A stretch of DNA of 64,000 bases from an uncultured Chloroflexia bacterium (GTDB lineage: Bacteria > Chloroflexota > Limnocylindria > QHBO01). Of this stretch, positions 2,234 to 41,749 are shown in pieces. The notes beneath the pieces are model-generated. The model did not search any database and had not been told where the DNA came from. It saw only the letters and a program-made list of their open reading frames with translations. Each line of letters begins with the position of its first letter. Position 1 is the stretch's first letter. Where the stretch lies: assembly GCA_963837425.1 (NCBI GenBank), contig CAWINH010000002.1, positions 425,344 through 489,343 on the forward strand, given 5' to 3'. The position numbers and the translations under genes were made by a program.

Positions 2234-2390
2234 CTCGTGCGGGCTGCGCTGGGGCCGATCAGAACGAGGTGCTATGGGGTGCGCAGCAAGGCGCTGCTGG
2301 AGCAGTTGATCGAGGAGTTGCGGGTCGTCTCCGGGGTCGACGTGCGAGTCACGTATCGCATACCGCCCACGGTTCGCTTGCCGGATGGGA

Positions 2391-2466
2391 TGGTGGAGAT
2401 GAGGGGACTCGAACCCCTGACCCCCGCGATGCGAACGCGGTGCTCTCCCAGCTGAGCTACATCCCC
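2391..2466 (-). tRNA. tRNA-Ala (anticodon CGC)
   Basis: The minus strand reads GGGGATGTAGCTCAGCTGGGAGAGCACCGCGTTCGCATCGCGGGGGTCAGGGGTTCGAGTCCCCTCATCTCCACCA. It has a 7-bp acceptor stem with the G3:U70 Ala identity pair, anticodon loop TTCGCAT (CGC), a TTCGAGT T-loop, and an encoded CCA. Confidence 0.92.
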
Positions 2467-2530
2467 ACGGGCATGGTCCGGACGGGCCGGCGGCGAGTAT
2501 AGCAGGGGTCTCGGAGGGTCTTCACAGACT

Positions 2531-2544
2531 AGAACATTTGTTCT
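2531..2544. promoter_or_regulatory. LexA (SOS) box AGAAC-N4-GTTCT (Gram-positive/Chloroflexi-type GAAC-N4-GTTC) upstream of imuA
   Basis: Perfect palindrome AGAACATTTGTTCT, 16 bp upstream of the imuA ATG. An identical half-site pair recurs before dnaE2 (10215-10228). Confidence 0.7.
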
Positions 2545-2559
2545 ATCATCGGTTGGGCC

Positions 2560-3402
2560 ATGAGCTTCCAGGCCGATGTCGCCCGACCCGTCCGACCCCT
2601 CCCCGAGCTCCTCGAGGCGCTGCGCGATCGCGGTCTGCGACGGGGGGTGGAACCCGGGCCGATTGCTGGCGCCGGCCGCGCGACCCCTGCCCACCGGCCA
2701 GCCGCGGCTCGACGCCGCGCTGCGCACCGGCGGCTGGCCGCGGGGCGCGCTGGCGTTCCTGGACGCCACCCCGGGGAGCGGCGCCACCAGCCTGGCGCTC
2801 GGCTCGCTGGCCGCCTGCCAGGCATCGGGCGGGGTGGTCGCCTACCTGGATCCGGCCGGCAGCCTGGACCCGGCCACCGCCGCCCGGCTGGGGGTGAACC
2901 TCGACTGGCTGCTCGTCGTCCGCCCGGCGGACGCCGCCGAGGCGGTGGAGCTGGCCGCCTGGCTGGCCCGCGACCGGAGCGTGGACGCCCTGGTCCTGGA
3001 CCTGGCCGATGCGGACGCCGTCGGCGCGCGCGCCCTGGACCGCCTGGCCGGGCTGCTCCTGCGCAGCGGCGGGGTGGGGCTGCTGCTGACCGGCGGCGCG
3101 CTCGACCCGGGCGGCGGAGCAGGCCGCCGCACGGGTGCCGGGTGCGGGTGACGCTGCGGCGCAGCGCCTGGCTGGCGGTGGGTCGCGACCTCGTCGGCCA
3201 GCGGGTCGAGGCGGTGGTGGCTCGCCATCGCTGGGCGCTGGCCGGCGGCCGCGCGGAGCTCGACCTGTTCTTCGCCGAGGGGCGGCGGACGGATGCGTTG
3301 CTGCGCGCCGCCGCCCCCGGTGGAGGAGGCCGCCGAGCGGCCGGCGCTCGCCGTCATCGGCGCGTGAGCCCGCGATGGACCATCTGGCAATCTGGATGGT
3401 AG
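2560..3402 (+). CDS. imuA: ImuA / ImuA' (RecA-fold SOS mutagenesis accessory protein); split over frames 1, 2, 1 by apparent indels
   Basis: Frame 2 (2576-3151) gives the ImuA signature LPTGQPRLDAALRTGGWPRGALAFLDATPGSGATSLALGSLAACQASGGVVAYLDPAGSLDPATAARLGVNLDWLLVVRPADAAEAVELAAWLARDRSVDALVLD. The C-terminus (VTLRRSAWLAVGRDLVGQRVEAVVARHRWALAGGRAELDLFF) is in frame 1. A LexA box sits immediately upstream. Confidence 0.75.
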   Translation: MSFQADVARPVRPLPELLEALRDRGLRRGVEPGPIAGAGRATPAHRPAAARRRAAHRRLAAGRAGVPGRHPGERRHQPGARLAGRLPGIGRGGRLPGSGRQPGPGHRRPAGGEPRLAARRPPGGRRRGGGAGRLAGPRPERGRPGPGPGRCGRRRRARPGPPGRAAPAQRRGGAAADRRRARPGRRSRPPHGCRVRVTLRRSAWLAVGRDLVGQRVEAVVARHRWALAGGRAELDLFFAEGRRTDALLRAAAPGGGGRRAAGARRHRRVSPRWTIWQSGW

Positions 3403-3403
3403 G

Positions 3404-3667
3404 ATGCGCATGAAGGTGACGATCGCCCTGCGCGACGAGGCGCTCTATCGGGCGGCTCGTATCCGTGCGGTGGAGTCCGGGCGCCAGATCCGCGACGTGG
3501 TCGAGGAGGCACTGCGCGAGTGGCTCGAACGCCAGGAGGATGCCGAGGACCTCGAGCTGGCCCGGGAGGCGCTGGCCGAGTACGACGCTGCTGGCGGCGA
3601 GGACGCGGATCGCTTCTTCGGGCGGATGGTGGCCGAGGGCCGCGTGACGTACGAGGCGAATGGCTGA
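3404..3667 (+). CDS. Type II antitoxin, ribbon-helix-helix (CopG/ParD-like)
   Basis: 87 aa: MRMKVTIALRDEALYRAARIRAVESGRQIRDVVEEALREWLERQ... This is an RHH fold with an acidic C-terminal tail. It sits directly upstream of, and adjacent to, a RelE/ParE toxin gene. Confidence 0.7.
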   Translation: MRMKVTIALRDEALYRAARIRAVESGRQIRDVVEEALREWLERQEDAEDLELAREALAEYDAAGGEDADRFFGRMVAEGRVTYEANG

Positions 3668-3670
3668 GGC

Positions 3671-3944
3671 GTGGCGCTCCGGGTCGAGCTCACGCCGGCT
3701 GCCGCGCGCCAGCTGCGGCGCCTTCGAGCGCGGAGGCGCTGGCGCTGCGCGGCGTGATCCTGGCCCTTGGCGAGGATCGCATCCTCCGGGGAGCGGGAAG
3801 CTGGCGGGATCGGAACTGTGGCGGGTCCGAGTGCGGATCGATGGTGCGCCATGGCGCGTCGTGTACCAGGTTCGCGAGGCGGAGGGCCTGGTGATCGTCG
3901 CGCGCGTTGCCCGGCGGGACGAGGCGACATACCGGCAGCTCTAG
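3671..3944 (+). CDS. RelE/ParE family toxin (type II TA), broken over three frames
   Basis: N-terminus VALRVELTPAAARQLRRL (GTG 3671, frame 2), middle PSAEALALRGVILALGEDR (frame 1), C-terminus GSGKLAGSELWRVRVRIDGAPWRVVYQVREAEGLVIVARVARRDEATYRQL (frame 0). Together these give the classic RelE/ParE architecture. Confidence 0.65.
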
Positions 3945-3982
3945 GTCTGGCAGGACTGCGGTCAATTAGTGGCGGATGCCCG

Positions 3983-5036
3983 ATGACGCGGCTGCTGGCC
4001 ATGGTCTGGCCGGACCTGCGCCTGCCGGATGCGGACGCGCGCCGTTCGAGCTGCGCTGGACCGGCTGGACGACCTGTCCCCGCGGGTCGAGGCGGTGGCG
4101 TCGGGGTGGTGCTGGTGGAGATCACCGGGCTGGGGTCGCTGCTCGGCGAGGAACGCCGGGTCGCGGCGCGGGCGGTGGCCCTGACCCGCGAGGTGCTGCC
4201 GCTCCCCGTGCGCTGCGGGGTGGGGGAGAACCGCTGGCTGGCGGTGCTGGCCGCCCGGCTGGCGCGCCCCGAGCCGGCCCGATGCCCCGGCCGCCTTCGC
4301 CGCCCTCGGTGGCGCGCGCGACTGGCTGGCCCCGCTGCCGCTCGACCTGCTGCCGGCCGATCCGGCCACGCGACAGCGCTTCGCGCTCTTCGGGATGACC
4401 GGCATGGGCCAGCTGGCCGCCCTGCCGCGCTCCGCGGTGGGGGCCCAGTTCGGGGCGCCGGGGAGCGGCTCCAGGAGCTGGCCCGCGGCGAGGACCCGCG
4501 CCCGCTCGTGCCCCGCCGCGCCCGGAGCGGCTGCCGCGCGCATCGGCTTCGAACCGCCGGCGGAGGGGGTGGGCGGCAGCGCCCTGGCGCTGCGGCGGGC
4601 CTGTGCGGAGTTGTGCGAGGCGCTCCGCACCCGGCACCTGGCGCCCGGTCGCGCCAGGCTGACCCTCATCCTGGAGGATGCCCCGCGGCTGGAGGTGACG
4701 CTCGCCTTCCCGGCGCCGGCGCTCGAGCCGGACTGGATCGCGCGGCTGCTCATCGGGCGCCTGGAGCAGGCCGCCCGCGCTCGGCGGATGGAGGCGGAGC
4801 CGCGGGTGGTGGCCATCGGCCTCGTCTTCGATCGCCTGGCCGACCCGGCCAGCCGGCAGCTGCCGGCCTTCGAAGCCCAGGCCGGACGCTGGGAGGAGCT
4901 GCGCTGGGCGCTGGAGCGGATGCGCGCGCGGTTCGGGGAGGGGCGCCTGTGGCGGGCCGTCTGTGACCGGCCGACCGCGATGCTCGACGAGCGGCGGTCG
5001 CGCCTCGTGGATATCGGCGCCGAAGGCTCGTCATGA
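3983..5036 (+). CDS. imuB: ImuB (catalytically dead Y-family polymerase-like SOS mutasome subunit), body; multiple frame switches
   Basis: MTRLLAMVWPDLRLPDADA ... RAVRAALDRLDDLSPRVEAVA ... VVLVEITGLGSLLGEERRVAARAVALTREVLPLPVRCGVGENRWLAVLAARLARPEP ... DWLAPLPLDLLPADPATRQRFALFGMTGMGQLAALPRSAVGAQFGAPGS ... EDPRPLVP ... ARLTLILEDAPRLEVTLAFPAPALEPDWIARLLIGRLE. This is a Y-family fold lacking the catalytic acidic residues. It lies downstream of imuA in the LexA-controlled cassette. Confidence 0.7.
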
Positions 5037-5287
5037 CCCGCCTGGTGGCAGGCCATCCGCTGGTGCAGGTGGAGGCGGACCCAGAGGGGACGCCCGTTCG
5101 CCTGCGGATGGGTGGCCGGACCTACGGCGAGGTGGGGATCTGCAACCGCTGGCGCATGGACGATGACTGGTGGCGCACCCCGCTGGCGCGCGCCTACTTC
5201 AAGGTGGTCACCCGCGACGGCCTGCTGTGTACCATCTACCTCGACGAGATCCACGGGACCTGGCACCTGGAACGGATCTACGACTGA
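5033..5287 (+). CDS. ImuB C-terminal module (DUF4113-like), 84-aa ORF overlapping the imuB stop by ATGA
   Basis: The sequence ...CNRWRMDDDWWRTPLARAYFKVVTRDGLLCTIYLDEIHGTWHLERIYD matches, from memory, the conserved ImuB C-terminal signature (WWR.P..R.YF ... W.L..I.D). It is intact and coupled to imuB, or separated from it by a frameshift. Confidence 0.5.
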   Translation: MTRLVAGHPLVQVEADPEGTPVRLRMGGRTYGEVGICNRWRMDDDWWRTPLARAYFKVVTRDGLLCTIYLDEIHGTWHLERIYD

Positions 5288-5430
5288 CCGATCACGAGCG
5301 CCAGCCAGGATCTCCAGCAGGCCGAAGAGGAGGTGTCGGAAGCGCAACACCGGCATCCGCCGCAGTGGAGCGGAGCGCTGAGCAGGGACCCGGCTAGTAC
5401 GACGGCCGCGAGCAGCAGGACGAGGCCCGG

Positions 5431-6114
5431 TCATGCCGCGATCGCGCACCCGCTCAGCGCGAGGTAGACGGGGATCCGCGCGAGATCCACCGCCATCGCC
5501 ACGCCGGTCGGGGTCGCCACGGCGCCATGGGACAGGTCGGCATGGACGAGCGCCGCCGAGCGGATGCCGCCCTGGTAGCCGACCAGCCCGCTGAACCCGC
5601 CGGCAGTAACCCGGCGACGACACCGGCGGTCCGCGGCGGATCCCGAGCCGGCGAGCTGAACCCGGTCAGGCCCGAGAAGCCAGCGAGCACGAGCGGGCCC
5701 CGAGCAGGATCCCGAGGCGCGGCTCCCGAGAGTCGCCTGCAGGAGAGGGCGCTCAATCCGCCCGCGGGACTCGCGGATCGGAGCGTGAGGAGCACCCGAC
5801 GCTCGGACGTCCGCGGACAACATCTTCACACGCGCATTGCCCTGCGCTGCGGCCGGCGGCGGGTCCGACCCGCTACATCCCCGCGGGCACCGTGTCGCGC
5901 GCCTCACGCCGGGGCAGGTGTCCCGATGCCGAAGCTGGCGAGCGCGGCGACGGCGGCCCACGGTGGTGAAGCGCCAGGAGGAGGACCCAGCCACTGGGCT
6001 GTGTAGCCGCCCGCGCCTACATGGCCTGCCGGATGGACCGGTTGTGGCCCGATCCCTGCGGCCAGACTCTCCCCGCGCCGTGCATTCCGCAGCTCGACGG
6101 GCGCTACCCGTCAC
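5431..6114 (-). pseudogene. Possible degraded TauE/SafE-type permease remnant
   Basis: Minus-strand fragments GPLVLAGFSGLTGFS and GGFSGLVGYQGGIRSAALVHADLSHGAVATPTGVAMAVDLARIPVYLALSGCAIAA (a repeated G-F-S-G-L-x-G motif) lie in two frames, with no intact ORF or start. Confidence 0.25.
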
Positions 6115-6152
6115 GGGCCGCGGCCGGGTGGATCGCCTGGTGTGGGCTCAAC

Positions 6153-6816
6153 ATGCTCACCAGCATCGACGGGCGCGCCCAGCTTCGCGGCACGGCGGAG
6201 GGGCTGGGCGGCCGGACCGATCGACGCCTGCTCCAGCTGTACCGGGCCGCATACGACGCCATCGGCTCCGGGGCCGGCACCCTGCGAGCCGATGACTTCT
6301 ACCCGCGCTCGCCCCGGACCTGGCTGACCGTCGCGCGCGCGACGGGCCGATCGGCGCAGCCGCTGGCGCTGCTGATCGGTGGTGGCGGCCCGCTGCCCAC
6401 CGAGCGGCGCTGGTTCGCGAACGCAGATCCCGAGCCGCGCGGCGAGCTGGTGATCGGCAGCACCAGCCCGCACGCGGTCGGGGCGCCCGGCACGGAGACC
6501 TGGGTCGCCCCCGGCCCGCGCCCGGAGCCGGCATGGATCCTGGAGCGCCTGGCGGCCGAGAGGCATACGCTCCTTCCTGCTGGAGGGCGGGCCCACCCTC
6601 AACGCCACCTTCCTGGCCTCGGGGCTCATCGACGAACTGTACTGGAGCATCGGCGCACGCCTGCTCGGCACCGACGCCCTCCCGATGATCGCGCCCATCG
6701 CCGGGGGCTCGCCGTACGCGGAGCAGCCGCGCGAGGGCCGGCTGCTCAGCGTGCATCGCGACGGGGATGAGCTCTTCCTGCGCTACCGCTTCGCTGCCGG
6801 GCCGGAGTGCGAGTAG
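6153..6816 (+). CDS. RibD C-terminal domain / dihydrofolate reductase family reductase (one frame switch near 6560)
   Basis: MLTSIDGRAQLRGTAEGLGGRTDRRLLQLYRAAYDAIGSGAGTLRADDF ... then in another frame SFLLEGGPTLNATFLASGLIDELYWSIGARLLGTDALPMIAPIAG...RLLSVHRDGDELFLRYRF. Confidence 0.65.
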
Positions 6817-6825
6817 GATCGGGCC

Positions 6826-7745
6826 ATGGGTGAGCACCGCCGCCGGATCTCGGTCGCCTGGGGGTGTGGGGGCACCTCGACAGCCTGCCCATCGCCGATG
6901 CTCGCGGCTATGCGCGGCGCGCCGAGGAGCTCGGCTTCGGGACGCTGTGGGTGCCGGAGACGGTGGGCCGCGAGCCGTTCACCCTGCTGGGGCTGCTGGC
7001 CGCCGAGACGAGCGAGATCCACCTCGGGACGAGCATCGTCGGCATCTGGGGCCACGACGCGCAGACGGCCCGCATGGCCGCCCTGACCCTGGCCGAAGCG
7101 ACCGCCGGCCGTTTCGTGCTGGGCCTGGGCGTCTCGCATCCGCACCTGGCCCAGAAGCTGCGCGGCCACGACTTCGATCGGCCCCTGACCCGGATGCGCC
7201 AGTTCCTGGCTGCGTATCGGTCCGCGGTGTACAAGGGCCCGATGGTGGACGGCTGGGCCGATCCGCCGGTCCTGGTCGCGGCGCTGCGGGAGCGCATGCT
7301 GACCCTGGCCGCCACGGACGCGGACGGCGCCTTTCCGTACCTGGTCAGGCACCGAACGGGGTGGCATGGACGCGCGACGGTCCTGGAGCGCGCGGGGGCG
7401 CCCGGTGACCATCGTCCGGTCCTGGCCGTCACCCTGCCCTGCGTGCTGGAGACCGATGCCGCCACTGCTCGCGAGTCAGCCCGTGCCTACCTGGCGCCGT
7501 ACCTGCGCACCCCCACCTACCACGCCAGCTGGGCGGAGCAGGGCTTCGCGGACCCGGACTGGGCGCGGGGCCGGGCAGCGAGCGAGCTGGTGGATGCCAT
7601 GGTCGCGTGGGGCGATGCCGAGGAGCTGCGGGCGCGCATCGGTGAGCTGCTCGAAGCCGGTGCCGACCACGGTGGCGATCATCCCCCTGGCGCCTGACGG
7701 CACCACCGAGCACCTCGCCGCCTGCTGGAGGCCCTGGCCGGCTAG
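6826..7745 (+). CDS. LLM-class (luciferase-like) F420/flavin-dependent oxidoreductase; N- and C-termini in shifted frames
   Basis: ADARGYARRAEELGFGTLWVPETVGREPFTLLGLLAAETSEIHLGTSIVGIWGHDAQTARMAALTLAEATAGRFVLGLGVSHPHLAQKLRGHDFDRPL... The C-terminus ELLEAGADH / VAIIPLAPDGTTEHL / LLEALAG* is spread over three frames. Confidence 0.7.
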
Positions 7746-9043
7746 CTACTCGAGCTCGATCGGGGGGGCCAGCCATCGGTCCCTCGGCAGGAGGGGCAGC
7801 GGAGATGGGCGCGGACATCAGCCAGCCCATGTGCCGGATGCTCGAGGAGAACAGGGGGTTGCCAGGTTGCCGCCCACCCCCGCGCGGCGGCACGACGAGC
7901 GTGGTCGTCATCCCGATGGCCGCGGCCGGACCGGACCGACCACGGCGGGAAGCCGACCGGCTGGAAGATGAGCGAGACGAGCCAGTCGTAGCTGCTCACC
8001 CGGGAGAGCGCCTCTGCCTGGATCCGTTGCTGGAGCACCGTGTACCACCACGTGTTGGTGAGCTCCAAAGCGACGGCCAGCGAGGCGAGCGCCGCCAGCA
8101 TGATGAACGGGACGGGCGGCCGGATCCGCGGGAGCAGCAGCAGCGGAATGAAGAAGACCGGCCCAAGCATGAACCCCGCGACGAGCGGGCGCGCCGGCCG
8201 CCAGCGCAGCGCCACGATCCCGCCGAGCAGGCCACCGGCTCCCTGCGCGGTCACCATCAGCCCCCAGCTGGTCGAGCCGCCCAGGGCGCATTCGCGGCAA
8301 CGACCGGTCCCAGCACGAAGAATGGCCCCTGGCGGACCTTAACGAGACGCCGAAGGCGGCGATCGCGGTGATGAACCAGCGCCGACTCGTCACCTCACGC
8401 CACCCGGCAGCCAGCTTCGGCCATGAACGGCAACCGGGGCGCCGTGGCGGGAGATGCGTGGCACGTGCAGCCGCAAGAGGGAGAACGCGCTCACCACGAA
8501 CGTTGCCGCGTCGATGACGAACACCCATCCGACGCCCACGGTGGCGACCAGCAGGCCGGAGACGGATGGACCGATGATCCCGGTCGCGCTTCGCGACGGC
8601 TCCATCAAGGCATTGCCCTGCTGGAGATGCTCGGTGCGGGGGCGAGCACCTGGGGCATGAGCCCGCTGGCGGCCGGGACGAAGAACGCGCTGGCCGCGCC
8701 GATGATCGCCGCGCCGCCCGCCAGCTCCCAGAGCTGGGCGGTGCCGCTGAGCAGCAGCCCGGCCATCGCCAGCTCAACACAGCCCGCGGACGACATCGGC
8801 GGCGAGCATCACGCGCTGCCGTGGCAGGCGATCCGCCCATACGCCGCCGGCAAGGATGAAGACCAGGCGGGGGACGGAGAAGGCGGTGAGGACGAGGCCA
8901 ATTCCCCCGGCGTCTCCGCCGAGCTGCAGGACCGCGAAGACGATGGCCACCGGGATGAGCGCGTCGCCGACCGCGCTCGTCGCCTGCCCAACCCACAGCA
9001 GCCGGAAAGGGGCGTCGTTGAGCGGCCCGAGGCGGTCGCGCAA
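7742..9043 (-). CDS. MFS transporter (enterobactin-exporter-like), fragmented
   Basis: N-terminus MRDRLGPLNDAPFRLLWVGQATSAVGDALIPVAIVFAVLQLGGDAGGIGLVLTAFSVPRLVFILAGGVWADRLPRQRVM. Later TM segments appear in ORFs 8605-8796, 8390-8608 and 7742-8257. Confidence 0.65.
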
Positions 9044-9067
9044 GCCACGGCGGGAAACGCATTGCTG

Positions 9068-9700
9068 TCATCCTCGCCGATGGGCGGTGCCCCGGGGGCG
9101 GCTGTCTACTCGCGCTGCGCCGGGCCTGCCAGGTGGGAGCGATCCATGCCGTGAGACGAGGGACCCGGGTGGGCCCCAGAAGCTCGGTCTTTCGAGAAGA
9201 TGCCCGAGCTCCCCCAGGCGCTGCGGCGACCCGGATCGGAGCGCAGGTTGGCCGGGTCGATGAGGGCTGATCAAGCTCGTCGAAGTCGCGCTCCTCGAAG
9301 CCAACCAAGTCGAAAAAAGCGCGCGCGCGGCTCCTCGGTGGCGTAGCCGCGACCCCACCAGGGCTTGCCGAGTGTCCAGACCACCCTCGCGGACCCGGAA
9401 CCAGTCGGAGCGGGATTCATGATGCCGATGCGCCCCAATCAGCTAGGCCGCTCGCCCGCCTCCTGCGACAACCGCCCAGACGCCGTGGGCCGGCGCAGCA
9501 CCCAGTGGCCGAAACCCAACCGGCGATCGAGCGCCAGCACTCCTGCCGGGGGTAAAAACGGAATCCGGAACAAGGTCGCCGACGAACAACGCACGACCTC
9601 GGGATCCTGCATGAGTGCGAAGAGCGACTCCGCGTCTGCTCGTCGCGGAACGGCCGCAGGATCAGTAGCCCGGGTCTCGATCGTGGAAGGATCAGCGGGG
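9068..9700 (-). pseudogene. GNAT (RimJ/RimL-like) N-acetyltransferase remnant, heavily frameshifted
   Basis: Minus-strand pieces LILRPFRDE / DAESLFALMQDPEVVR / PWWGRGYATE / GFEERDFDELDQ / ERPSFWGPPGSLVSRHG lie in three frames. Confidence 0.35.
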
Positions 9701-10214
9701 ATCTCCCCATCCGTGCGATCATGCCGGGGAGCCCGGGCGAGGCTGTGCGGAGCGGCAGGAGCGCAGCGATGTCAGCCGGCGGCTCAGCTCCTGATCGGAA
9801 GGATCTCGACGCTGCGGTGGCCAGGAGGAGGCCGTGAGTCGGCCAGGGGGGGGCAAAGAACGAGCGATAAAAACGCTGTCCGAGGCGGCGCGAGCGCGGC
9901 TTCGAGCGCCTGGCAGGGGCGGTGCCGCCGGGAGTGCAGACCGTAGGGGTCTTCGCCAAATCTGAGCACCAGCAGCCAGCCAGCGGGGAAAAATCGCCGA
10001 ATCGCCCGAGACGAACCTCGACGGTGGGGTCCGAGGCCGGGGGCGACGAGCGTGAACTCGGTGCGAACGACGCTGGCGGCGGTGGTCGGGGGGAGAGTGT
10101 GCGTAGCATCGGCGGGGGGCACCGTGACAGCTCGTGTGTTCGCGGGAAGTGGATGTGTCAGCCCAACTGCGTCGAAGATCGCGGGCTGAGCACGCGCTAG
10201 GGGTTGTTCTCAAT

Positions 10215-10228
10215 AGAACGGGTGTTCT
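10215..10228. promoter_or_regulatory. LexA (SOS) box AGAACGGGTGTTCT upstream of dnaE2. An overlapping GTTCTCAATAGAAC half-site pair sits at 10205-10219.
   Basis: Perfect AGAAC-N4-GTTCT palindrome 16 bp before the ATG at 10244. Same half-sites as the imuA box. Confidence 0.7.
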
Positions 10229-10243
10229 ATTCTTGCAGGTCCG

Positions 10244-13200
10244 ATGACCGGGCCGGAGCCGGCTACTGCGAGCTCCACGCGCACACCAACTTCAGCTTCC
10301 TTGACGGTGCCAGCCACCCGGAGGAGCTGGTGGGTCGCGCAGCGCTGCTAGGCATGCCGGGGCTGGCCATCACCGACCATGCCGGCCTGTACGCCGCGGT
10401 CCGCCTCTGGAAGGCGGCCGCCCAGACCCGGACCGATGCGGCGCGTGCCGCCGGCCTGGAGCCGGTCACCGCGATCATCGGCCTGGAGCTGGCCATTCCC
10501 CGGGACGAGGGGGAGCTGCGCCTGGCGCGTCGCGGCCGCAAGCTGAACGACCCGCTCCGGGGCAGCAGGGCGAGCCGCGGCTGGCCGGGCGAGCTCCACG
10601 CCGGGCCCGATCCCCGGGCGACCACCTCGTCCTGCTGGCCCGCGACGCCGCCGGCTACACCGCCCTCTCCCGCCTCGCATCCCGCGGCCACCTGGCCGGG
10701 GAGAAGCAGTTCCCGGTCTTCGAGCGCACGCTCGTGGAGGCCGCGCTGGACGAGGCGCGCGGCCACCTGGTGGGCCTTTCCGGCTGCCGCAACGGGGAGG
10801 TGCCACGCCGCCTGCTCAACGGAGAGGCGGATGCCGCCCGCGCGGCAGCGGAACGCTGGGCCCGCCACTTCCCGGGGGGTGACTTCGCGGTGGAGCTTAG
10901 CCACCACCTGCTGCCGGACGACGACTGGCTCACCGCGCAGCTGGCCGGGTTGGCCGAGGCCGCGGGCCTGCCACGGTGGTCAGCAACGAGGTGCACTACA
11001 CCGAGCCGGGCGGCCATCGCCTCCAGGACGTGCTGGTCTGCATCCGTCACGGCGCCACCCTGGAGGAGGCCCGCGAGCTGCTCCTCCCCAACGCCGAGTA
11101 CCGGCTGAAATCGGGGGCCGAGCTCGCCGCCCTGGGCAACGGGTTGCCGGATGCCAGCGCTCGCGAGCCTGGGCCGACGGGATGGTGCAGGCGGCAGCCA
11201 TCGGCCAGTCCTGCAGGCTGGACCTGGACTTCGAACGCTATCGGTTCCCGGGCTTCACGGTCCCCGAGGGCGAGACGCCGTTCTCATATCTCTACCAGCT
11301 TGCCCACGACGGCTTACGGCAGCGTTATCGGCCCATTACCAAGCAGGCCGTCACCCAGCTGGCGCACGAGCTCGACATCATCGAGCGCACGAACCTGGCC
11401 GAGTTCTTCCTCATCGTCTGGGACCTGATGGAGTTCGCGCGGGCCGGTGGGATCATCGGGCAGGGGCGGGGGAGTGCCGGCGACTCGATCGTGGCCTACT
11501 GCCTGGGCATCACCAAGGTGGACCCCATCGAACACAAGCTCCTCTTCGAGCGCTTCATCAACGAGGCGCGGACGCTGCCGGACATCGACATCGACTTCGA
11601 CGTCAACCGGCGCGAGGAGGTGATCCAGTACCTCTACACCCGCTACGGCGAGGATCACGCCGCCATGGTCTGCACCGTCATCACCTACCGGGCTCGCTCG
11701 GCGGTGCGCGAGGTGGCCAAGGCACTCGCCTTCCCGCCCGAGGCGGTGGACCGGGTGGCCAAGGCGCTCGACACCCGCGACGCCACCGACGTGGCCCGCG
11801 ACCTGGCCCTGGACGGCAGCTTCGGTTGGCTGTTCACCGAGCTGGGGCTGCCCATGGCGGCGGCGGCGGTTCCCTCCGGCCGTGATGGACGGGCCGATGC
11901 GGGCCGGTCGTCCGCCAGCCCTCCGACTCCCCCTGGCATGGCAGCCCGCGCCCAACCCTGGCGCTGCGCGCCACTGCCGCTGCGCTCCGACCTGGCCGAT
12001 GCCGAGGCGCGCGCCCGGGACGCGGCGAACGACCATGACGGGCGGCCGTACAGCGAGTCGGGCTGGGTCCCGCCGCGGCGGCCGAGCGTGCTGGACCAGT
12101 CGGTCGTCAGCGTCAAGCACGAGGGCTGGCAGCAGAAGCGCTATGGCCGGGGGGGCTGCGCGGGCTGGGCGCCAGCGAGTCGCTGGCCGTGCCGCAGCCG
12201 CGCGACACCGGATCGCCGGGGCCGTGGAGCGGCCCGTGGTCGTCCGGGTTGACCCGGAGAGCGGCATGCCGATCGAGGAGCGACGCCGGCCGAGCGTCAT
12301 CCGAGGAGAGCGGACGACATCCCGCCCTCCAGTCACCCTCGCCCCACGCGCCACCTCGCAACCGCTGGCAATGGCTCCTGACCCTGTGCGCGGAGATCGA
12401 TGGCTTCCCGCGCCACCTGGGGATTCACGTGGGCGGGATGCTCGTCACCCGCACCCCGCTCATCGACCTGGTGCCCATCGAGCGGGCCAGCATGCCGGGC
12501 CGGGTGGTGACCCAGTACGACAAGGAGGACATCGAGGCGCTGGGCCTGGTGAAGATCGACCTCCTCAGCCTGCGGACCCTGGGCGTCGTCTCCGACGCGC
12601 TCGACCGGATCGAACGCGACACCGGCACCAGGATCGACCTCGACAGCCTCCCCCACGACGATCCCGAGGTGTTCCGCACCATCCGCGCCGCGGACACGGT
12701 GGGCATGTTCCAGGTCGAGTCGCGGGCCCAGATGCAGGCCCTCCCCAAGGCGCGGCCGGAGCGCTTCGAGGACCTCGTGGTCCAGGTGGCGATCATCCGT
12801 CCCGGCCCGGTGCAGGGCAACGCCGTCCATCCCTACCTGCGGCGACGCGCCGGCCAGGAGCCGGTGGTCTACCCCCATCCCAGCCTGGAGCCGATCCTGG
12901 GCGACACCCTGGGCGTGATCCTCTACCAGGAGCAGGTGATGCAGGTCGCCATCGACGTCTGCGGCTACTCGCCGCTGGAGGCGGACATCTTCCGCAAGGC
13001 GATGGGCTCCCATCGCAGCCATGCGAAGATGCAGGCCGAGCGCGATCGGTTCGTGGGCGGCGCCATGCGCACCGGCCTGACCGAGCCCGATGCGGAGGAC
13101 CTCTTCAAGCGCTGCAGCGCCTTCGCCGAGTTCGGCTTCGCGCGGGCCCACGCGGCGGCCTTCGCCAAGATCACCTACGACACCGCCTGGCTGAAGATCC

Positions 13201-14114
13201 ACTACCCGGCGCACTACTACGCGGGCGTCCTGAACAACCAGCCGATGGGCTTCTACTCGCCGGCGGTCGTGCTGGGTGACGCGAAGCGCCACCGCATCAG
13301 GGTGCTGCCGGTGGACGTCAACGCATCGGCCTGGGAGCACGATACCCGGCCGGTCGGCGACGGCACCTTCGCCCTGCGCCTGGGCCTGCGCCAGGTGAAG
13401 GGGATCGACGACGCCGCGCGCGAGACGCTCGAGCGCGAGCGCGACATCGGTCCCTACGCCGGCGTCCGCGACTTCGTGGCACGCACCGGCCTCGGCGAGC
13501 AGGTCGTCGAGCGGCTCATTGCGGTGGGCGCCTTCGACTGGACCGATGCGCCCCGCCGCGAGCTCCTCTGGCAGCTGCGCACCACGATGGCCGACGCCAA
13601 CCCCGCGCGTCCCGCGCTGGGCCTGACCGATGACGCTCAGCGGGCGCTGGGCGCCTCGCTCCCGCAGATGACCTTCGCGGAGAAGGTGGCCGCCGACTAT
13701 CGCGAGCTGGGCCTGTCGCAGACGGCCCACGCCGTCGAGCTGTTCCGCGAGCGGCTCGGCGCGCGAGGGGTGATCACCGTGGCCGAGGCGGGGGAGCGAC
13801 GGGATCGGTCGTCCATCCGGCTGGCGGGCCTGGCGGTATCGGTCCAGCACCCGATGACCGCCAAGAACTTCGTCTTCATCGCGCTCGAGGACGAGACGGG
13901 GATGATCAACGTCACCCTCCGCCCGAACGTGTACACCGCGCATCGGTCCATGCTCCATCGCCATCCGCTGCTCGTCATCGATGGGACGCTGCAGGTCGAG
14001 GGGGAGGTGCTCAACGTCGTCGCGCGGCGCCTGCACCCGGTGGCGGAGGTGATCGCCGAGGACGCGCGCGACCCGCGTCTGCCACTCCGCAAACAGCAGC
14101 GCATGTTCCGCTGA
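10244..14114 (+). CDS. dnaE2: Error-prone DNA polymerase III alpha subunit DnaE2 (ImuC); many frame switches in the 5' half, 3' 1.9 kb intact
   Basis: PHP N-terminus YCELHAHTNFSFLDGASHPEELVGRAALLGMPGLAITDHAGLYAAVRLW. The pol III alpha core is PRHLGIHVGGMLVTRTPLIDLVPIERASMPGRVVTQYDKEDIEALGLVKIDLLSLRTLGVV ... MFQVESRAQMQALP ... YQEQVMQVA ... with a C-terminal OB region. A LexA box is upstream and imuA/imuB are nearby. Confidence 0.8.
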
Positions 14115-14184
14115 TTGGCCCTTGACGCCTCGCCCAATCCGACGCACGCTCCGCCCGTCCATCTCACCTTTGGGGAGAGCGAAC

Positions 14185-14649
14185 ATGACCCGGCCCGAGT
14201 CCGGCCCACGCGACCAGCACGGCGTGCGCTCCTTCCTCCGCGTCGGTGGGCCGATCCTGCTCGGGATCGGGCTGATCCTCACCATCGCCGGCCTCGCCAG
14301 CTTCTTTGCCGCGTTCGGCTCGTTCGGCGTGCCGAGCAACTTCTGGATGGCGTTCGTTGGCATGCCGCTGATCGGCATCGGGGCCTCCATGACCTGGATC
14401 GGCTACCTCGGCCCCGCGACCCGCTACGTGGCCGGCGAGCTCACGCCCACCCTCCGCGACACGCTCGGGTCGCTTGGCCTCTCATCGGGGACGAAGTGCC
14501 CTGCCTGCGGCGCTGCGAACGACCGCGACGCCCGGTTCTGCGACGCGTGCGGCCATGCGCTGAGCGCGGCCTGCCCCTCCTGCGGGGCCGCCAACCATGC
14601 CGGAGCTCGCTTCTGCGACTCGTGCGGGGCGGCGCTGAACAGCCCTTGA
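14185..14649 (+). CDS. Membrane protein with C-terminal double zinc-ribbon (2x CPxCG...FCDxCG)
   Basis: Two or three TM helices, then KCPACGAANDRDARFCDACGHALSAACPSCGAANHAGARFCDSCGAAL. Confidence 0.6.
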   Translation: MTRPESGPRDQHGVRSFLRVGGPILLGIGLILTIAGLASFFAAFGSFGVPSNFWMAFVGMPLIGIGASMTWIGYLGPATRYVAGELTPTLRDTLGSLGLSSGTKCPACGAANDRDARFCDACGHALSAACPSCGAANHAGARFCDSCGAALNSP

Positions 14650-20097: not shown

Positions 20098-20204
20098 GCG
20101 CCGGATGGTACCCGAGACGGCGCGGTACGCAAGGCCCCAAGCCGATGCGCTAGACTGCCGCCAGGTCCTTTAAGGCCGGCACAGTGATGCCGGAAAGGAG
20201 CGAG

Positions 20205-21365
20205 ATGCAGACAGTCGAACGCACGGGCCATACGACGTCAACCGCCGGAGAGCGGTCGGCGTCGTTCTCGTCTCCGGTGCCCGGCCTGCTCGCTCTCGAG
20301 GGCGGGACCATTCACCACGGGCGGCTGCGCGGCGCCCCGGTCGCGGCCAGCGGCGACCTCATCTTCACGACCGCCGCCACGGGCTGGGGCGAAATCCTCA
20401 CCGACCCCTCTTACGAGGGGCAGATCGTCGTCCTCACCCACCCGATGGCCGGCAATTACCGGATCAGCGCTGCCGAGCTCGAGTCGGAGCGGGTACACGC
20501 GCGAGCGCTGGTGGTCACCCGCCTCGTCACGCCGCCGCCGGGTCCCGGGCGCAGCCTCGAGGAGCTGCTCAGCGAGGCGCAGATCCCCGCCATCGAGGGT
20601 GTCGACACGCGCGCCCTGACCCTGGAGCTGCGCCGCGGCGCAGCGCGGCGCACGGTCATTGCCCCCGGCGCCGACGAGGCCGGCAGCGTGGCCGCGGCGC
20701 GCGCCACGACACCCTGGGAGGCGATCGATCACGTCGCGGCGGTGGCGACCCGCCGGCCGTACACGCTCGCGCCGGAGGGGCCGCGCCGGGCGCGCGCCAC
20801 GCTCGTCGACTACGGCGTCAAACGCTCGCTCCTCCGCGCCCTCGCGGCGCGCGGCTTCGAGGTCACCGTGCTGCCGCACGCCTCGGGAGCCGAGGCAGTG
20901 CTGGCCACCGAGCCCGACCTCATCGTCCTGTCGCCCGGCCCCGGCGATCCGTCGCGGATGGAGCGCGAGATCGGCGTGGCCGGGACGCTCGCCGCCGGAG
21001 CCGTCGCCGGCGGGGTCCCGATCCTCGGCATCTGCCTCGGCCATCAGCTGCTGGCCCTGGCGGCCGGGGGGCGGACCGCCCGGCTGCCGGTCGGCCACCA
21101 CGGCGGCAACCACGCGGTCATCGAGACCGCCGCCGGGCGCGTCGACATCGGCGCCCACAACCACGAGGTGGCGGTCCTCGACGACCCGGCTCTCGTCGCC
21201 GCCGGCTACCGGGTCAGCCATCGCGATCTGAACGACGGCACCGTTGAGGGCCTGGTCCACGCCTCGGGACGGATCGCATCGGTCCAGTTCCACCCCGAGG
21301 GTGCTCCCGGACCCATCGACGGGTCCCGCGTCTTCGACATCGCTGCGGAGCGGGCGGTGGCGTGA
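20205..21365 (+). CDS. carA: Carbamoyl-phosphate synthase small (glutamine amidotransferase) subunit CarA. An upstream GTG at 20184 is possible.
   Basis: [61 protein letters not shown] ... [17 protein letters not shown] ... HNHEV. An AAAGGAG Shine-Dalgarno sits 6 nt before the ATG at 20205. Confidence 0.9.
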
Positions 21366-24244
21366 CGATCCCGCGCAAGGTCCTCGTCATCGGCTCGGGG
21401 CCGATCCTGATCGGCCAGGCCGCCGAGTTCGACTACGCGGGGGTGCAGGCCTGCCTCGCCCTGCGTGGCGAGGGGGTCGAGACGGTTCTCGTCAACTCGA
21501 ACCCGGCCACGGTGATGACCGACCCCGACGTGGGCGGCACTGTGGTCATCGGCCCCCTGACGGTCGAGCACCTCGGCGCGGTCATCGCCGAGCACCGGCC
21601 CGATGCGCTGCTCCCGACCCTCGGCGGGCAGACCGGGCTCAACCTGGCGGTGGCGCTCGACGACGCGGGCGTCCTGGACCGATACGGGCTGCGCGTCCTC
21701 GGCACACCGCTCGACGCGGTGCGCGCCGCGGAGGATCGCGGCGGGTTCCGGAGCCTCGTGACCGGGATCGGCGAGCCGGTGCCGGAGAGCGCGGTCATCG
21801 AATCGGTCGAGGACGGGATGCGCTTCGTGGAGGCGCTCCGAGCGCCGGTCGTCATTCGCCCGGCATTCACCCTCGGTGGCGGCGGGGGAGGCTTCGCCTT
21901 CACTCCCGAGGAGGCCCGGGAGCGGATCGCGACCGGCATCCGCACGAGCCCCATCGGCCAGGTGCTCGTCGAGCGCTCGCTGTTGGGCTGGTACGAGATC
22001 GAGTTCGAGGTCCTGCGCGATGCGGCTGACACGACGATCGCGATCTGCGGCATGGAGAACGTCGATCCGATGGGGGTCCATACCGGCGACTCGATCGTGG
22101 TGGCGCCCATCCAGACCCTCCCCGACCCGGTCGTCCAGCGGCTGCGCCGTTCGGCGCTGAAGATCGTCCGGGCGCTCCGTCTCGAGGGAGGCTGCAACGT
22201 CCAGCTGGCCGTGACGCCGGATGGGAGCGACTACCGGGTCATCGAGGTCAACCCGCGCGTCAGCCGCTCCTCGGCGCTGGCCTCCAAGGCGACCGGCTAT
22301 CCGATCGCCCGCGTGGCGGCACTCGTCGGCCTCGGGAAGCGGCTCGACGAGCTCCCGAACCCGGCGACCGGCGGCAACTCGGCTGCATTCGAGCCGGCGG
22401 TCGACTACGTCGTGGTGAAGATCCCGCGCTGGCCGTTCGACAAGTTCCCGGCCGCCGATCGCTCGCTCGGGGTGCAGATGAAGGCGACCGGCGAGGCGAT
22501 GGCGATCGACCGCGAATTCGGCCCCGCCCTCCTCAAGGCTCTCCGATCGCTCGAGCCGCGCGGTCACGGCTGGCTGTGGGAGGACGACGGCTGGGGGCTG
22601 GGACCCACGCGCCCCGGAGGATCCCGAGGCATTCCTGGCGCCGAGTGACACCCGCCTGTGGCGGATGGTGAGCCTGCTCCGCCATGGCTGGACCGATGCC
22701 GCCGGGCTGGCAGCGGTGACCGGCATCGCGCCGTGGTTCTGCGAGCGCTTGGCAGAGCTGGTGGCGTCCGAGGCGTAGGTGGTCGGCGCACCGCTGATCG
22801 AGGCGAAACGGGGCGGCTTCGGGGACGCGGAGATCGCCGCGCTGTCCGGGGTGCCGCCCGCCGCGGTTCGCCGCGCGCGGGTGCGCGCCGGGATCATGCC
22901 CGCCTACCGCCGCGTGGACACCTGCGCCGGCGAGTTCCCGGCGGAGACGCCCTATTTCTACTCGTCGTACGCGCTGCCGGAGGTGCCGCCGCCGGCCGAT
23001 CGGCGCAGCGTCATCGTCGTCGGCTCGGGGCCGATTCGCATCGGGCAGGGGATCGAGTTCGACTACTGCTCGGTCCGTGCCGCCTGGGCGATCCGCGAGC
23101 TGGGCCTCGACGCGGTCGTCATCAACAACAACCCCGAGACGGTATCGACCGACTATGACGCGTGTTGGCGGCTCTACTTCGAACCGCTCGACACCGAGTC
23201 GGTCCTCGACGTCATCGACCACGAGCGGGCGCTCACCGGTGAGCCGCCGCTGGTCCTCCTCACCTTCGGCGGGCAGACGGCCATCGACCTGGCCAAGGAC
23301 CTTGCCTACGACGACGTGCCGATCGCCGGCCTCACCGCACATGCCATCGAGCTGACCGAGGATCGCGAACGGTTCGCCGAGCTCCTCGACGAGCTGGGCC
23401 TCTAGGGCCCGCGCGGCGCCTTGCCGGCAATGCCGGCGAGCTGCGCAGCCGCGGATGCGCTGGGCCTGCCGGTCATCGTGCGGCCCTCGTGGGTCATCGG
23501 CGGGCGGGGGATCGCGGTGCTGCGCTCCGCGGACGACCTCGACGAGCTGCTGCGCACCGAGATCGGCTGGCCGCTGCGCGTCGACGAACTGGTCGAGGGC
23601 ATCGAGCTGGACGTGGACGCCATGAGCGACGGTACCGATTGGTGCGTGCCCGGCATCCTGGAGCAGCTGGATCCGCCCGGCGTCCATTCCGGCGACTCGA
23701 TCGCCGTCCTGCCGCCCCAGCGCCTGCCGCGCGAGGTGCAGGAGCGGGCCGCGGCGGCAGCCGGCCGCATCGCGCTGGCGCTCGGCGTCCGCGGGGTGCT
23801 GAACGTGCAGATGATCGTCGCCGACGAGCGGATGGTGATCATCGAGGCGAACCCGCGCGCCAGCCGCACGGTGCCCATCGTCGCCAAGGCCACGGGACGC
23901 GACGTCGTGGCGGCGGCGGTGCGCTGCGCGCTGGGTGGATCGCTGGCGGAGGCGGGCTGGGAGCCGGGGCTGGCGCCGGACGCGCCGCTCGTCGCGGTGA
24001 AGGCGCCGGTCGGCTCCCTGTGGCGGCTGCCGGGGGTACCGGGGAGCTCGGGCCGGAGATGCGATCGACGGGGGAGGTGCTGGGCCTGGCGACTGACTAC
24101 GCGACCGCCATGCGCTCGCGACGGACGCGGCCCGCGCGCACCCGGCCTGAGTCGTCCTCAGCGGGAGGAGGCGCCCTTCCGACGGCGCTGCGTTGCCACC
24201 GCGCCCCGATGCGAGCCGGAGCGGCGACGCGACGCCGCAGGTAG
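21362..24244 (+). CDS. carB: Carbamoyl-phosphate synthase large subunit CarB, fragmented (21362-22648, 22779-23405, 23421-~24244). No MGS-like C-terminal domain is encoded.
   Basis: [30 protein letters not shown]... ATP-grasp 1, oligomerization, ATP-grasp 2 ([12 protein letters not shown]...), then ...[25 protein letters not shown] followed by only a short Arg-rich tail before the stop. Confidence 0.85.
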
Positions 24245-24832
24245 CCGCCATACCAGCCCGCGATGGCGCCGAAGAAGAGCTGGAAGCTCTCCTGGGAGGC
24301 GAGGCCCAGGAACAGCGCGGGTCTGCTCACCCCGGGGTCGACGCCGCCCTGCAGGATGGCCGTGCCAACGATGCCGGCGAAGAGGATCACACCCAGGAAC
24401 GCCGCGGCCAGTCCGAAGGCCCACGGTCGCTGCCAGCCGAACCAGCCCGCGCCGATGAGCGCCCCAAACGAGACGACCGATGCCAGGGTGGCGGTGGCGC
24501 TGACCCCGGACCGAGCCGGGCCAGGAGCTCGCCAACGGCCCAAAAACGCCGGCGGCACCCACCAGCGGGGGCCAGCGCGAGCAGGTACAGGCCGCTGACG
24601 AGGCCACGGATCGGCCCGCCGTAGGTGAACCCCGCCAGCGGGTCGGGCTTGCCGGGCAGCGGCGGCGCCGGAGGGAAGATGCGCTCCAGGAAGCCCGCCG
24701 GCCGGGAGCCGGCGTCGGCTCGCTCGCTCGTCCTCCTCCTCGGCCTGCCCGGCCTCGCGGCCCTGGGCACGGTGGCGCGCGCGGCGGCGCGCTTCGGCGC
24801 GCGACGCGCCTGGCTGGACTGATCTGGCATGG
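24245..24832 (-). CDS. Hypothetical small membrane protein (frame-shifted), convergent with carB
   Basis: Minus strand: MPDQSSQARRAPKRAAARATVPRAARPGRPRRRTSERADAGSRPAGFLERIFPPAPPLPGKPDPLAGFTYGGPIRGLVSGLYLLALAP ... then in another frame ATATLASVVSFGALIGAGWFGWQRPWAFGLAAAFLGVILFAGIVGTAILQGGVDPGVSRPALFLGLA. Confidence 0.3.
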
Positions 24833-29688: not shown

Positions 29689-36006
<6,318 letters not shown>

Positions 36007-41078: not shown

Positions 41079-41081
41079 CCC

Positions 41082-41749
41082 GTGAACTTCGAGGAATCGC
41101 TGCGACTGTCGATCGCCCTGGGGCTGACGATCTTCCTCGTCCTGCTCCGCTTCGACTCGGAGCGGATCATGCGCTCGGACTACTTCCGCTACCGGACGCC
41201 GTGGCTCGGCCCGGTCAGCTACTACGCGCTGGTGGTCGCATTCACGATCGGGATCGTCGTCATCCTGCCCCAGGGACGCGCGACCCTCTTCCTGGCGCCC
41301 GGCGAGGCCGGCTCACTTCTGCCGATCATGTTCTGGTTCAGCGCGGTGGCGATCCTCGGGGCGATCGCCTTCGCCTTCCTCCGCTACCGCGGGCTCCTCC
41401 CGCTGCCGGTGCCGCTGCTGCCGTCGCGACTGATCGGGGCGGGGGCCTCCGCGGTCGCCGACGAGCTCCAGTTCCGCTCGATCGTGCTGGGCATCCTCAT
41501 CTTCGCCGACCTCCCCGGCGGGACGAACTGGCGATCCTCCTGCAGGCGCTCCTCTACGGCCTCGCCCAGCGCCGGCTGTGGAAGGAGCGCGACTGGTTCT
41601 TCCTGGCGGTCGCGGTGCTCCTCGGGTACGCCGCCGGCCTGGCGACGGTGGCTGCCGGCTCGGTGCTGCCGGCCATGGTCGGCCACTTCGCGGTGAGCGC
41701 CGCGCTCTTCGGATTCGCCGGCGGCAGGTTGCGCCAGCGACCGATCTGA
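41082..41749 (+). CDS. CPBP family intramembrane metalloprotease (CAAX protease/Abi), one frame switch near 41520
   Basis: GTG start. TM helices. Motifs SAVADELQFRSIVLG and, in the shifted frame, ...LPAMVGHFAVSAALFGF. Confidence 0.6.

Follow-up and report, generated by a model that had tools for sequence, protein, structure and literature searches.

The 64-kb window described here (the whole stretch of DNA that was analysed, from contig CAWINH010000002.1 of an uncultured Chloroflexia bacterium) carries the genes of an ImuA-ImuB-DnaE2 mutasome distributed over two transcription units which begin with the same promoter-operator module. From the sequence, we give a probability of about 0.8 to the reading that this is a LexA-type (SOS) regulated mutasome, that its split into two units is old and class-wide and that the frame breaks in its genes are assembly errors. 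The first unit (2521-5287) would comprise a promoter-operator, an imuA-like gene, an RHH/ParE pair, a short and putatively catalytically dead imuB, and a separately encoded imuB-C that would be translationally coupled to imuB. The second unit (10206-14114) would comprise a second copy of the promoter-operator followed by dnaE2. The features of the two units are as follows.

2521-2549, plus strand: imuA promoter-operator, with -35 TTCACA at 2521-2526, a 17-nt spacer and -10 TATCAT at 2544-2549.
2560-3367, plus strand: imuA-like gene, whose RecA-fold product (about 268 aa) has a Walker A motif that is degenerate (GSGATS, 2774-2791).
3404-3944, plus strand: type II toxin-antitoxin pair, of which the RHH/VapB-like antitoxin occupies 3404-3667 and the ParE-like toxin, with 2 frame breaks, about 3671-3944.
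3983-5036, plus strand: imuB, coding for a Y-family polymerase homologue of about 350 aa without the N-terminal catalytic segment.
5033-5287, plus strand: standalone imuB-C (DUF6504), 84 aa, intact.
10206-10233, plus strand: dnaE2 promoter-operator, with the palindrome ATAGAAC-N4-GTTCTAT and a -10-like TATTCT at 10228-10233.
10244-14114, plus strand: dnaE2, conceptually about 1290 aa, with PHP, palm, thumb with insert, fingers, HhH and OB regions.
11870-12365, plus strand: clade-specific thumb insert of DnaE2, 200-270 aa in relatives, with short conserved motifs and a hypervariable tail.

The G+C content of the window is 70.9%. The best homologues of the C-terminal 582 aa of DnaE2 are annotated as 'error-prone DNA polymerase' and belong to metagenome-assembled genomes (MAGs) of Candidatus Limnocylindria and other Chloroflexota, at identities of up to 92%. 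The top matches are from Candidatus Limnocylindria MAGs, which places the host in the Chloroflexota as the initial annotation had surmised from the type of its LexA box. LexA of Dehalococcoides, another member of the Chloroflexota, reportedly binds GAAC-N4-GTTC (Fernandez de Henestrosa et al. 2002). The related loci compared were L001 (JGI), L004 and L005 (ENA), and L006 and L008 (GTDB genomes labelled 'uncultured Chloroflexia bacterium isolate MFD...'), and the outgroup locus was L009, a contig of a Caldilineales MAG that begins 92 nt before imuB. DnaE2 identity across the Limnocylindria loci is about 64% at its lowest, and parts of L004 are nearly identical.

Two boxes carry the case for common regulation, with AGAACATTTGTTCT located upstream of imuA (2531-2544) and AGAACGGGTGTTCT upstream of dnaE2 (10215-10228). 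They are the sole exact GAAC-N4-GTTC sites in the window, and in Firmicutes and Actinobacteria this sequence serves as the motif of LexA (PMC3323433). The likeness between the two boxes claimed in the initial annotation was found to extend to TAGAAC-N4-GTTCTAT at both sites. This extended form occurs exactly twice in the window (2530-2546 and 10214-10230, with 0.00 expected from 100 shuffles), in each case 14 nt before the gene, imuA in the one and the dnaE2 ATG at 10244 in the other. The AGAACATTTGTTCT box occupies the spacer of the imuA promoter and abuts its -10 element, and the ATG of imuA follows 10 nt past the -10. A consensus promoter scan of 2300-10400 gave TTCACA-17-TATCAT as the sole sigma-70-like site (10 of 12 matches, 0.2 expected), and this promoter-operator is kept in L001, L005 and L008. 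The ATG of dnaE2 is also located 10 nt past its -10-like TATTCT, and a homologous box precedes dnaE2 in L001, L004, L005, L006 and L008.

The six Limnocylindria loci together span about 177 kb and hold 11 exact GAAC-N4-GTTC sites, each of which precedes the start of imuA, imuB or dnaE2 by less than 40 nt. A site preceding imuB was observed in L004 only, while those of the other relatives precede imuA or dnaE2. When the 11 sites are aligned, T-[A]-GAAC-N4-GTTCTA[T] shows little or no variation and the flanks vary; a -35-like CTTCCC is present, the first base of the -10 (TATCAT and variants) is also the last of the box, and 13-17 nt separate the box from the ATG. The putative operators are argued for by position and conservation and not by the raw count of GAAC-N4-GTTC. 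The imuB site of L004 is a third perfect box, TAGAACATCCGTTCTATTAG (L004:1074-1085), and its counterpart in the window at 3953-3965, AGGACTGCGGTCA, is degenerate.

The inverted pair that had been noted as overlapping the dnaE2 box is also present. It is an everted repeat, GTTCT-N4-AGAAC (GTTCTCAATAGAAC, 10206-10219), which has the GAAC at 10216-10219 in common with the box. We rejected it as a second operator, as it was found only in the window and in the closest relative, L004, and the orientation and spacing of its half-sites are wrong for a LexA dimer. Sites with one mismatch to GAAC-N4-GTTC were likewise rejected as added regulon members because their excess is small (21 against 15.3 expected, with 5 of 100 shuffles reaching 21). 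Just upstream of the dnaE2 box, at about 10198, the window reads TAGG and L004 reads CAGG.

The module was also found beyond these loci. When public metagenome contigs were scanned, TAGAAC-N4-GTTCTATCAT turned up 125 times, 78 on contigs with a G+C content of at least 62% and 47 on low-GC contigs. On the high-GC contigs, 47 of the 78 occurrences lie directly before DnaE2 (21) or ImuA/ImuA'-like (26) genes, and on the low-GC contigs none of the 47 does. The same sequence also precedes large serine recombinases on high-GC contigs (for example L126, L138, L191 and L200), RPYQ proteins (L162 and L194) and an SplB-like radical SAM gene (L177). These genes are possibly further members of SOS-type regulons, or prophage switches.

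The gene behind the second module is dnaE2. The peptide YCELHAHTNFSFLDGAS, which had been read as the N-terminus of the PHP domain, is encoded at 10264-10314, and the frame-corrected product of 1294 aa scores 1070 bits with the NCBIfam error-prone DNA polymerase model NF004225 (cutoff 939). With the DnaE1 equivalog NF004226 it reaches 777 bits where the cutoff is 1002, and the other DnaE1/DnaE3 equivalogs fall further below their cutoffs, which settles in favour of dnaE2 the choice between it and dnaE1 that the initial annotation had raised. The catalytic motifs PDIDIDFD (11578-11601) and VKIDLLSL (12549-12572) are intact. The public gene call for this protein (P0001) is a fragment of 558 aa, and the intact orthologue P0124 has 1325 aa. 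A natural split of DnaE2 into N- and C-terminal halves, hinted at by many homologues of about 560-600 aa, was considered and rejected because full-length in-frame versions exist: besides P0124, the proteins P0010, P0016 and P0028 read through the junction. The short calls start at varying Met codons in the hypervariable tail of the insert or at contig edges.

In the first unit, the frame-2 core of the imuA-like gene matches Pfam RecA with 71 bits over profile positions 33-139. The best match of imuB among the NCBIfam DNA polymerase IV models scores 63 bits (E 2e-17) over profile positions 81-384 only, all of these matches being below cutoffs. The match of ImuB to the DinB profile begins at 81, the first Asp motif is without a counterpart and the N-terminus reads MTRLLAMVWPDL. 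ImuB of the window is 31% identical over 249 aa to ImuB of L009, which passes Pfam IMS with 57.7 bits. After the polymerase core, at 4857-4874, ImuB has a clamp-binding-like QLPAFE that is also found in L005 and by eye resembles the QLLLF of L009 ImuB; by inspection, it may serve as a beta-clamp-binding motif.

The stop codon of imuB overlaps the start of imuB-C (ATGA, 5033-5036). An 84-aa open reading frame (ORF) occupies the same place in L001, L004, L005 and L008. A total of 776 homologues of imuB-C were found, mostly of 82-100 aa, and some of them form the C-terminus of IMS+IMS_C proteins (P0194 and P0243). PF20114 is passed by P0132, which is 50% identical to the ImuB-C of the window, and by the L009 orthologue, while the 84-aa ORF of the window gave no direct Pfam match. 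A sequence search of the PDB with ImuB-C returned nothing at E <= 1. Standalone ImuB-C domains are described by Aravind et al. 2013 (PMC3765255) and by Timinskas & Venclovas 2019 (PMC6511836). One protein, P0258 (371 aa), appears to be an ImuA-ImuB-C fusion, as its N-terminal domain is RecA-like and its C-terminus matches ImuB-C/DUF6504. The toxin-antitoxin pair wedged between imuA and imuB, which is ParDE-like, was observed in the window and L004 (L004:526-1062) only and is absent from L005 and L008; its Pfam matches are weak for VapB_antitoxin/RHH and 24.4 bits for ParE_toxin (cutoff 23).

The thumb insert of DnaE2 falls between the equivalents of about residues 468 and 493 of E. coli Pol III alpha, a region that we assign to the thumb domain in line with the published structures. 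Its motifs are PPGRDGR, SDSSWN, SESGW.PPRRP.VLD.SV..VKHE.W..KRYG, PRDNG.PGPSS and VRVDPESGMPIEERRRP, separated by variable linkers, and its hypervariable tail has an optional lower-GC piece of about 150-190 nt with His/Ala (APH) repeats. Among relatives, the insert covers residues of about 160-372 in P0010 and is also present in the DnaE2 locus of L005 (L005:10001-13978). It is 92-95% identical to that of L004 in three of four aligned segments and 77% in the fourth, and it is absent from DnaE2 of L009. Five of the dnaE2 frame breaks fall within it. An intein or a mobile element was rejected as its origin, as no intein-like ends were seen by inspection and the insert is conserved as protein; no Rfam family supporting a mobile insert reached threshold in the window, L002, L004 or L005. 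An AlphaFold2 model of P0010 from a 24-sequence clade-only alignment was poor (predicted local distance difference test, pLDDT, 49; predicted template modelling score, pTM, 0.36), with the insert at pLDDT 21-37 and in coil. The insert is rich in motifs and probably disordered.

The two units are separated by 4956 nt, from the imuB-C stop (5287) to the dnaE2 ATG (10244), in agreement with the 5 kb first estimated. The RibD_C, LLM, MFS and GNAT remnant genes that the initial annotation had placed between the units were all found; the minus-strand features, however, number three and not two. The features between and beside the units are listed here.

2391-2466, minus strand: tRNA-Ala(CGC), found with ARAGORN (Rfam RF00005, 65.9 bits in the window and L005).
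About 5300-6040, minus strand: TauE-like gene (Pfam).
About 6021-6795, plus strand: RibD_C gene (Pfam and alignment to L004 proteins).
About 6837-7745, plus strand: LLM/Bac_luciferase gene (Pfam and alignment to L004 proteins).
About 7820-9000, minus strand: MFS gene (Pfam and alignment to L004 proteins).
9279-9438, minus strand: weak GNAT fragment, 38 aa, E 3e-6 in a relaxed local search.

The tRNA, immediately upstream of the imuA promoter, forms a conserved left border of the imuA unit; the same tRNA adjoins imuA in L005. The genes at 5300-10200 appear to be unrelated to the mutasome. A tblastn search of the window with the L001 GNAT protein and the L004 and L005 MFS proteins gave no match at E 1e-3. 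The RibD_C reductase and luciferase-like monooxygenase pair (6021-7745) is found in each of the six Limnocylindria loci, placed between imuB-C and dnaE2, and might belong to the damage response. The order imuA, imuB, imuB-C, RibD_C, LLM, variable genes, dnaE2 was observed in the window, L001, L004, L005 and L008, and L006 shows the RibD_C-LLM to dnaE2 part of it. The stretch from LLM to dnaE2 turns over, with MFS, GNAT, VanY, ECF sigma or methyltransferase genes.

The initial annotation had proposed that the cassette was split by insertion or rearrangement while co-regulation was kept through duplicated operators. The synteny comparison fits a split by insertion: in L009, imuB (391 aa) is directly followed by imuB-C (105 aa) and this by dnaE2 (1010 aa), with junctions that overlap or measure 30 nt, and the same module stands at both units here. 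The split is, however, not an event of this genome. As the cassette is split in all six Limnocylindria loci and contiguous in L009, we consider the split to be derived, old and class-wide.

The extent 10205-14114, which had been presented as one gene, is not a continuous ORF and has at least nine frame-disrupting indels. A frameshift-aware alignment to intact or near-intact orthologues (L004, P0010, P0028 and P0124) placed the frame changes of dnaE2 at about 10258, 10602/10618, 10973, 11168, 11905, 11968, 12147, 12232 and 12311-12323. The ATG at 10244 and the PHP motif are in different frames, the break at about 10258 lying between them. The periodicity of G+C at third codon positions (GC3) switches frame repeatedly along the gene, and positions 1-74 and 73-164 of the Pfam PHP profile match in different frames, as do positions 2-170 and 192-259 of DNA_pol3_alpha. 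Alignment to L005 and L004 gave about three breaks in imuA (near 2665, 3101-3144 and 3316), two in ParE and about five in imuB. In most of the breaks one base is deleted, in several cases within a short G/C run.

The housekeeping genes carB, gap, pgk, eno and an EF-G-like GTPase gene (20184-24600, 29689-33201 and 39353-41746) are also frameshifted in the window. Here pgk runs over three frames, gap, eno and the EF-G-like GTPase over two each, and carB has two frameshifts together with in-frame TAG codons at 22776-22778 and 23403-23405 where relatives have TCC, TCG or GAG. The recurrent change to TAGG, in carB and at about 10198, may come from base-calling that errs systematically at a modified motif. 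In contrast, carB is a single ORF in L004 (928 aa) and in L002 (953 aa), a MAG that, to judge by its contig names, was assembled from short reads. In L004 itself, carA and VIT1 are interrupted by many 1-nt indels at places where the window and L002 agree. Because the damage in the window extends to housekeeping genes and that in L004 falls elsewhere, the frame breaks are, on this sequence comparison, almost certainly long-read assembly errors and not pseudogenisation, and imuA, imuB and dnaE2 are most likely intact in the organism. The ENA and GTDB relatives carry Flye-style 'contig_N' names and MFD isolate labels, and these belong to a Nanopore-based MAG project.

The nucleotide identity between the window and L004 (compared over 2889-24584) is a mosaic that ranges from 72 to 100% per 300-nt bin and reaches 100% at 13542-14442, which suggests recombination between populations or a chimeric consensus of mixed strains. 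The dnaE2 fragments are 87-95% identical to L004, all but one (77%). The indel-rich stretches are the low-identity ones of the mosaic, which fits consensus problems from mixed strains.

We propose the following mechanism. In both units the palindrome lies in the promoter spacer and abuts or overlaps the -10; a LexA dimer bound to it would block RNA polymerase. DNA damage would lead to a RecA filament and to self-cleavage of LexA, and both units would be de-repressed together. Since the ATG lies about 10 nt past the -10, the mRNA is expected to be almost leaderless. ImuB would bind the beta clamp through QLPAFE, and error-prone lesion bypass would fall to DnaE2 in a complex with the ImuA-like protein and ImuB-C. 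In this reading, the separation of 5 kb is an old, class-wide trait that arose from a contiguous imuB, imuB-C and dnaE2. LexA binding, damage induction and complex formation are here predictions from sequence; the motifs with their conservation and position, the gene identities, the synteny and the pervasive indels were observed directly.

Several points weigh against the proposed system. Two exact GAAC-N4-GTTC sites in 64 kb is not a significant number, as 0.61 were expected and two or more occurred in 12 of 100 shuffles. Neither the window nor the fetched loci yielded a lexA or recA gene, so that we infer LexA as the regulator from the motif. The ImuA-like protein is under the NCBIfam cutoffs (53 bits against 150 for ImuA_translesion; RecA 82 bits) and ImuB of the window has no Pfam IMS match. 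A single outgroup, L009, supports contiguity as the ancestral state. The indels cluster, with 2.5-12.3 kb much worse than 12.4-16 kb, and carB has its two in-frame TAG codons, which leaves some small probability to real decay of this region in this strain. The missing lexA would suit a palindrome that serves another clade-specific regulator, or is a conserved promoter core, instead of being a LexA operator. The conserved block also exceeds the LexA core (CTTCCC, TATCAT and GTCCGATG), so that part of its conservation reflects promoter elements, and mycobacteria also use the LexA-independent PafBC in their DNA damage response (PMC8682763). We nevertheless regard such a site as very unlikely, for the positions that do not vary spell exactly GAAC-N4-GTTC, which is established as the motif of LexA in Gram-positive phyla (PMC3323433), and the genes preceded by it (imuA, imuB and dnaE2, and in metagenomes the SplB-like radical SAM gene and serine recombinases) are of the kinds found in SOS regulons.

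The separated arrangement may instead be ancestral, with the two promoters alike through convergence on a common SOS design and not through duplication. All six Limnocylindria loci are split and the contiguous outgroup locus is single, and similar modules precede unrelated genes in other high-GC contigs, as would be expected of a generic design. This is unlikely in view of the overlapping or 30-nt junctions of imuB, imuB-C and dnaE2 in L009, the contiguous PolY, ImuB-C and DnaE2 described in PMC6511836 as the norm for systems with a standalone ImuB-C, and the position of dnaE2 next to a hotspot of gene turnover. The least likely alternative, in our judgement, is that the mutasome genes are real pseudogenes and SOS mutagenesis is decaying while the operators persist. 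It would account for the number of indels in dnaE2, imuB and imuA, for their concentration in 2.5-12.3 kb next to a clean 12.4-16 kb, and for an imuB operator that is perfect in L004 and degenerate in the window. Yet the disruption is not confined to this locus: gap, pgk, eno, carB and the EF-G-like GTPase are broken alike, essential genes among them, and the sister contig L004 is broken at other genes (carA and VIT1). Every dnaE2 fragment outside the insert retains strong GC3 periodicity, the fragments are 87-95% identical to intact orthologues with the one exception at 77%, the catalytic motifs of DnaE2 are intact, and the mostly 1-nt deletions, several in short G/C runs, are typical of a long-read consensus. 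Pseudogenisation of dnaE2 was for these reasons rejected as the main reading in favour of assembly errors.

The main practical value of these observations is a warning. Because the assembly is an indel-rich long-read one, gene calls and readings such as 'pseudogene' or 'split gene' in this window are unreliable. In addition, the proposed system extends LexA-controlled ImuA-ImuB-DnaE2 with the Gram-positive-type GAAC-N4-GTTC to an abundant uncultured class of soil and freshwater Chloroflexota, and the operator-promoter consensus TAGAAC-N4-GTTCTATCAT (17-20 nt) could be used to map SOS regulons in high-GC metagenomes. The thumb insert and the composition of ImuA plus a standalone ImuB-C are modest leads on mutasome architecture. 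A tentative and rather doubtful idea is that the mutasome has been re-partitioned, with a core-only ImuB, a free 84-aa ImuB-C, a retained RecA-like ImuA and the DnaE2 insert, at the tip of the thumb, as a docking platform. If true, the insert could dock ImuB-C, ImuA/RecA or the clamp, in place of the contacts made elsewhere by a long ImuB tail.

The system is an ordinary one of an already described type, a Limnocylindria example with minor architectural variations. The imuAB-dnaE2 genes of Caulobacter (Galhardo 2005) exemplify the contiguous proteobacterial cassette. The lexA-imuA-imuB-dnaE2 cassette of Proteobacteria (Abella 2004 and Erill 2006, as cited in PMC3919608) has the same three partners under LexA control. 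Unlike the arrangement seen here, it has a single operator, a full-length ImuB with a fused ImuB-C and no thumb insert in DnaE2. That the cassette may be 'contiguous or split' is already a textbook variant (PMC3919608), and LexA-regulated split cassettes were already described in mycobacteria and by Erill 2006.

The mycobacterial cassette, split into imuA'-imuB and dnaE2 (Warner et al. 2010, as cited in PMC6511836; PMC10421592), offers a close likeness. In M. tuberculosis and M. smegmatis there are also two loci, an accessory operon and a dnaE2 elsewhere, with LexA boxes of the GAAC-N4-GTTC type, which are here predicted. Each mycobacterial locus is damage-inducible, and of its products ImuB has no catalytic activity while DnaE2 acts as the polymerase; the same is predicted for the present system. 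The present system differs in that the gap is only 5 kb and holds the conserved RibD_C-LLM pair, ImuA is recognisably RecA-like (Pfam RecA), ImuB is short with its C-terminal domain as a separate 84-aa gene, DnaE2 carries the 200-270 aa thumb insert, and a ParDE-like pair lies inside the operon.

The Kyrpidia tusciae-type operon (PMC6511836 and PMC3765255) is also similar, since a PolY, inactive there and putatively so here, is followed by a standalone ImuB-C (DUF6504) and associated with DnaE2; L009 of the Caldilineales has exactly this contiguous order. According to PMC6511836, such operons or genomes have no imuA. Here, in contrast, a RecA-like imuA heads the operon in the window, L001, L004, L005 and L008, and dnaE2 is detached behind its own putative operator, with 4956 nt and at least five features in between. 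A RecA-like ImuA together with a standalone ImuB-C is the combination that PMC6511836 reports not finding.

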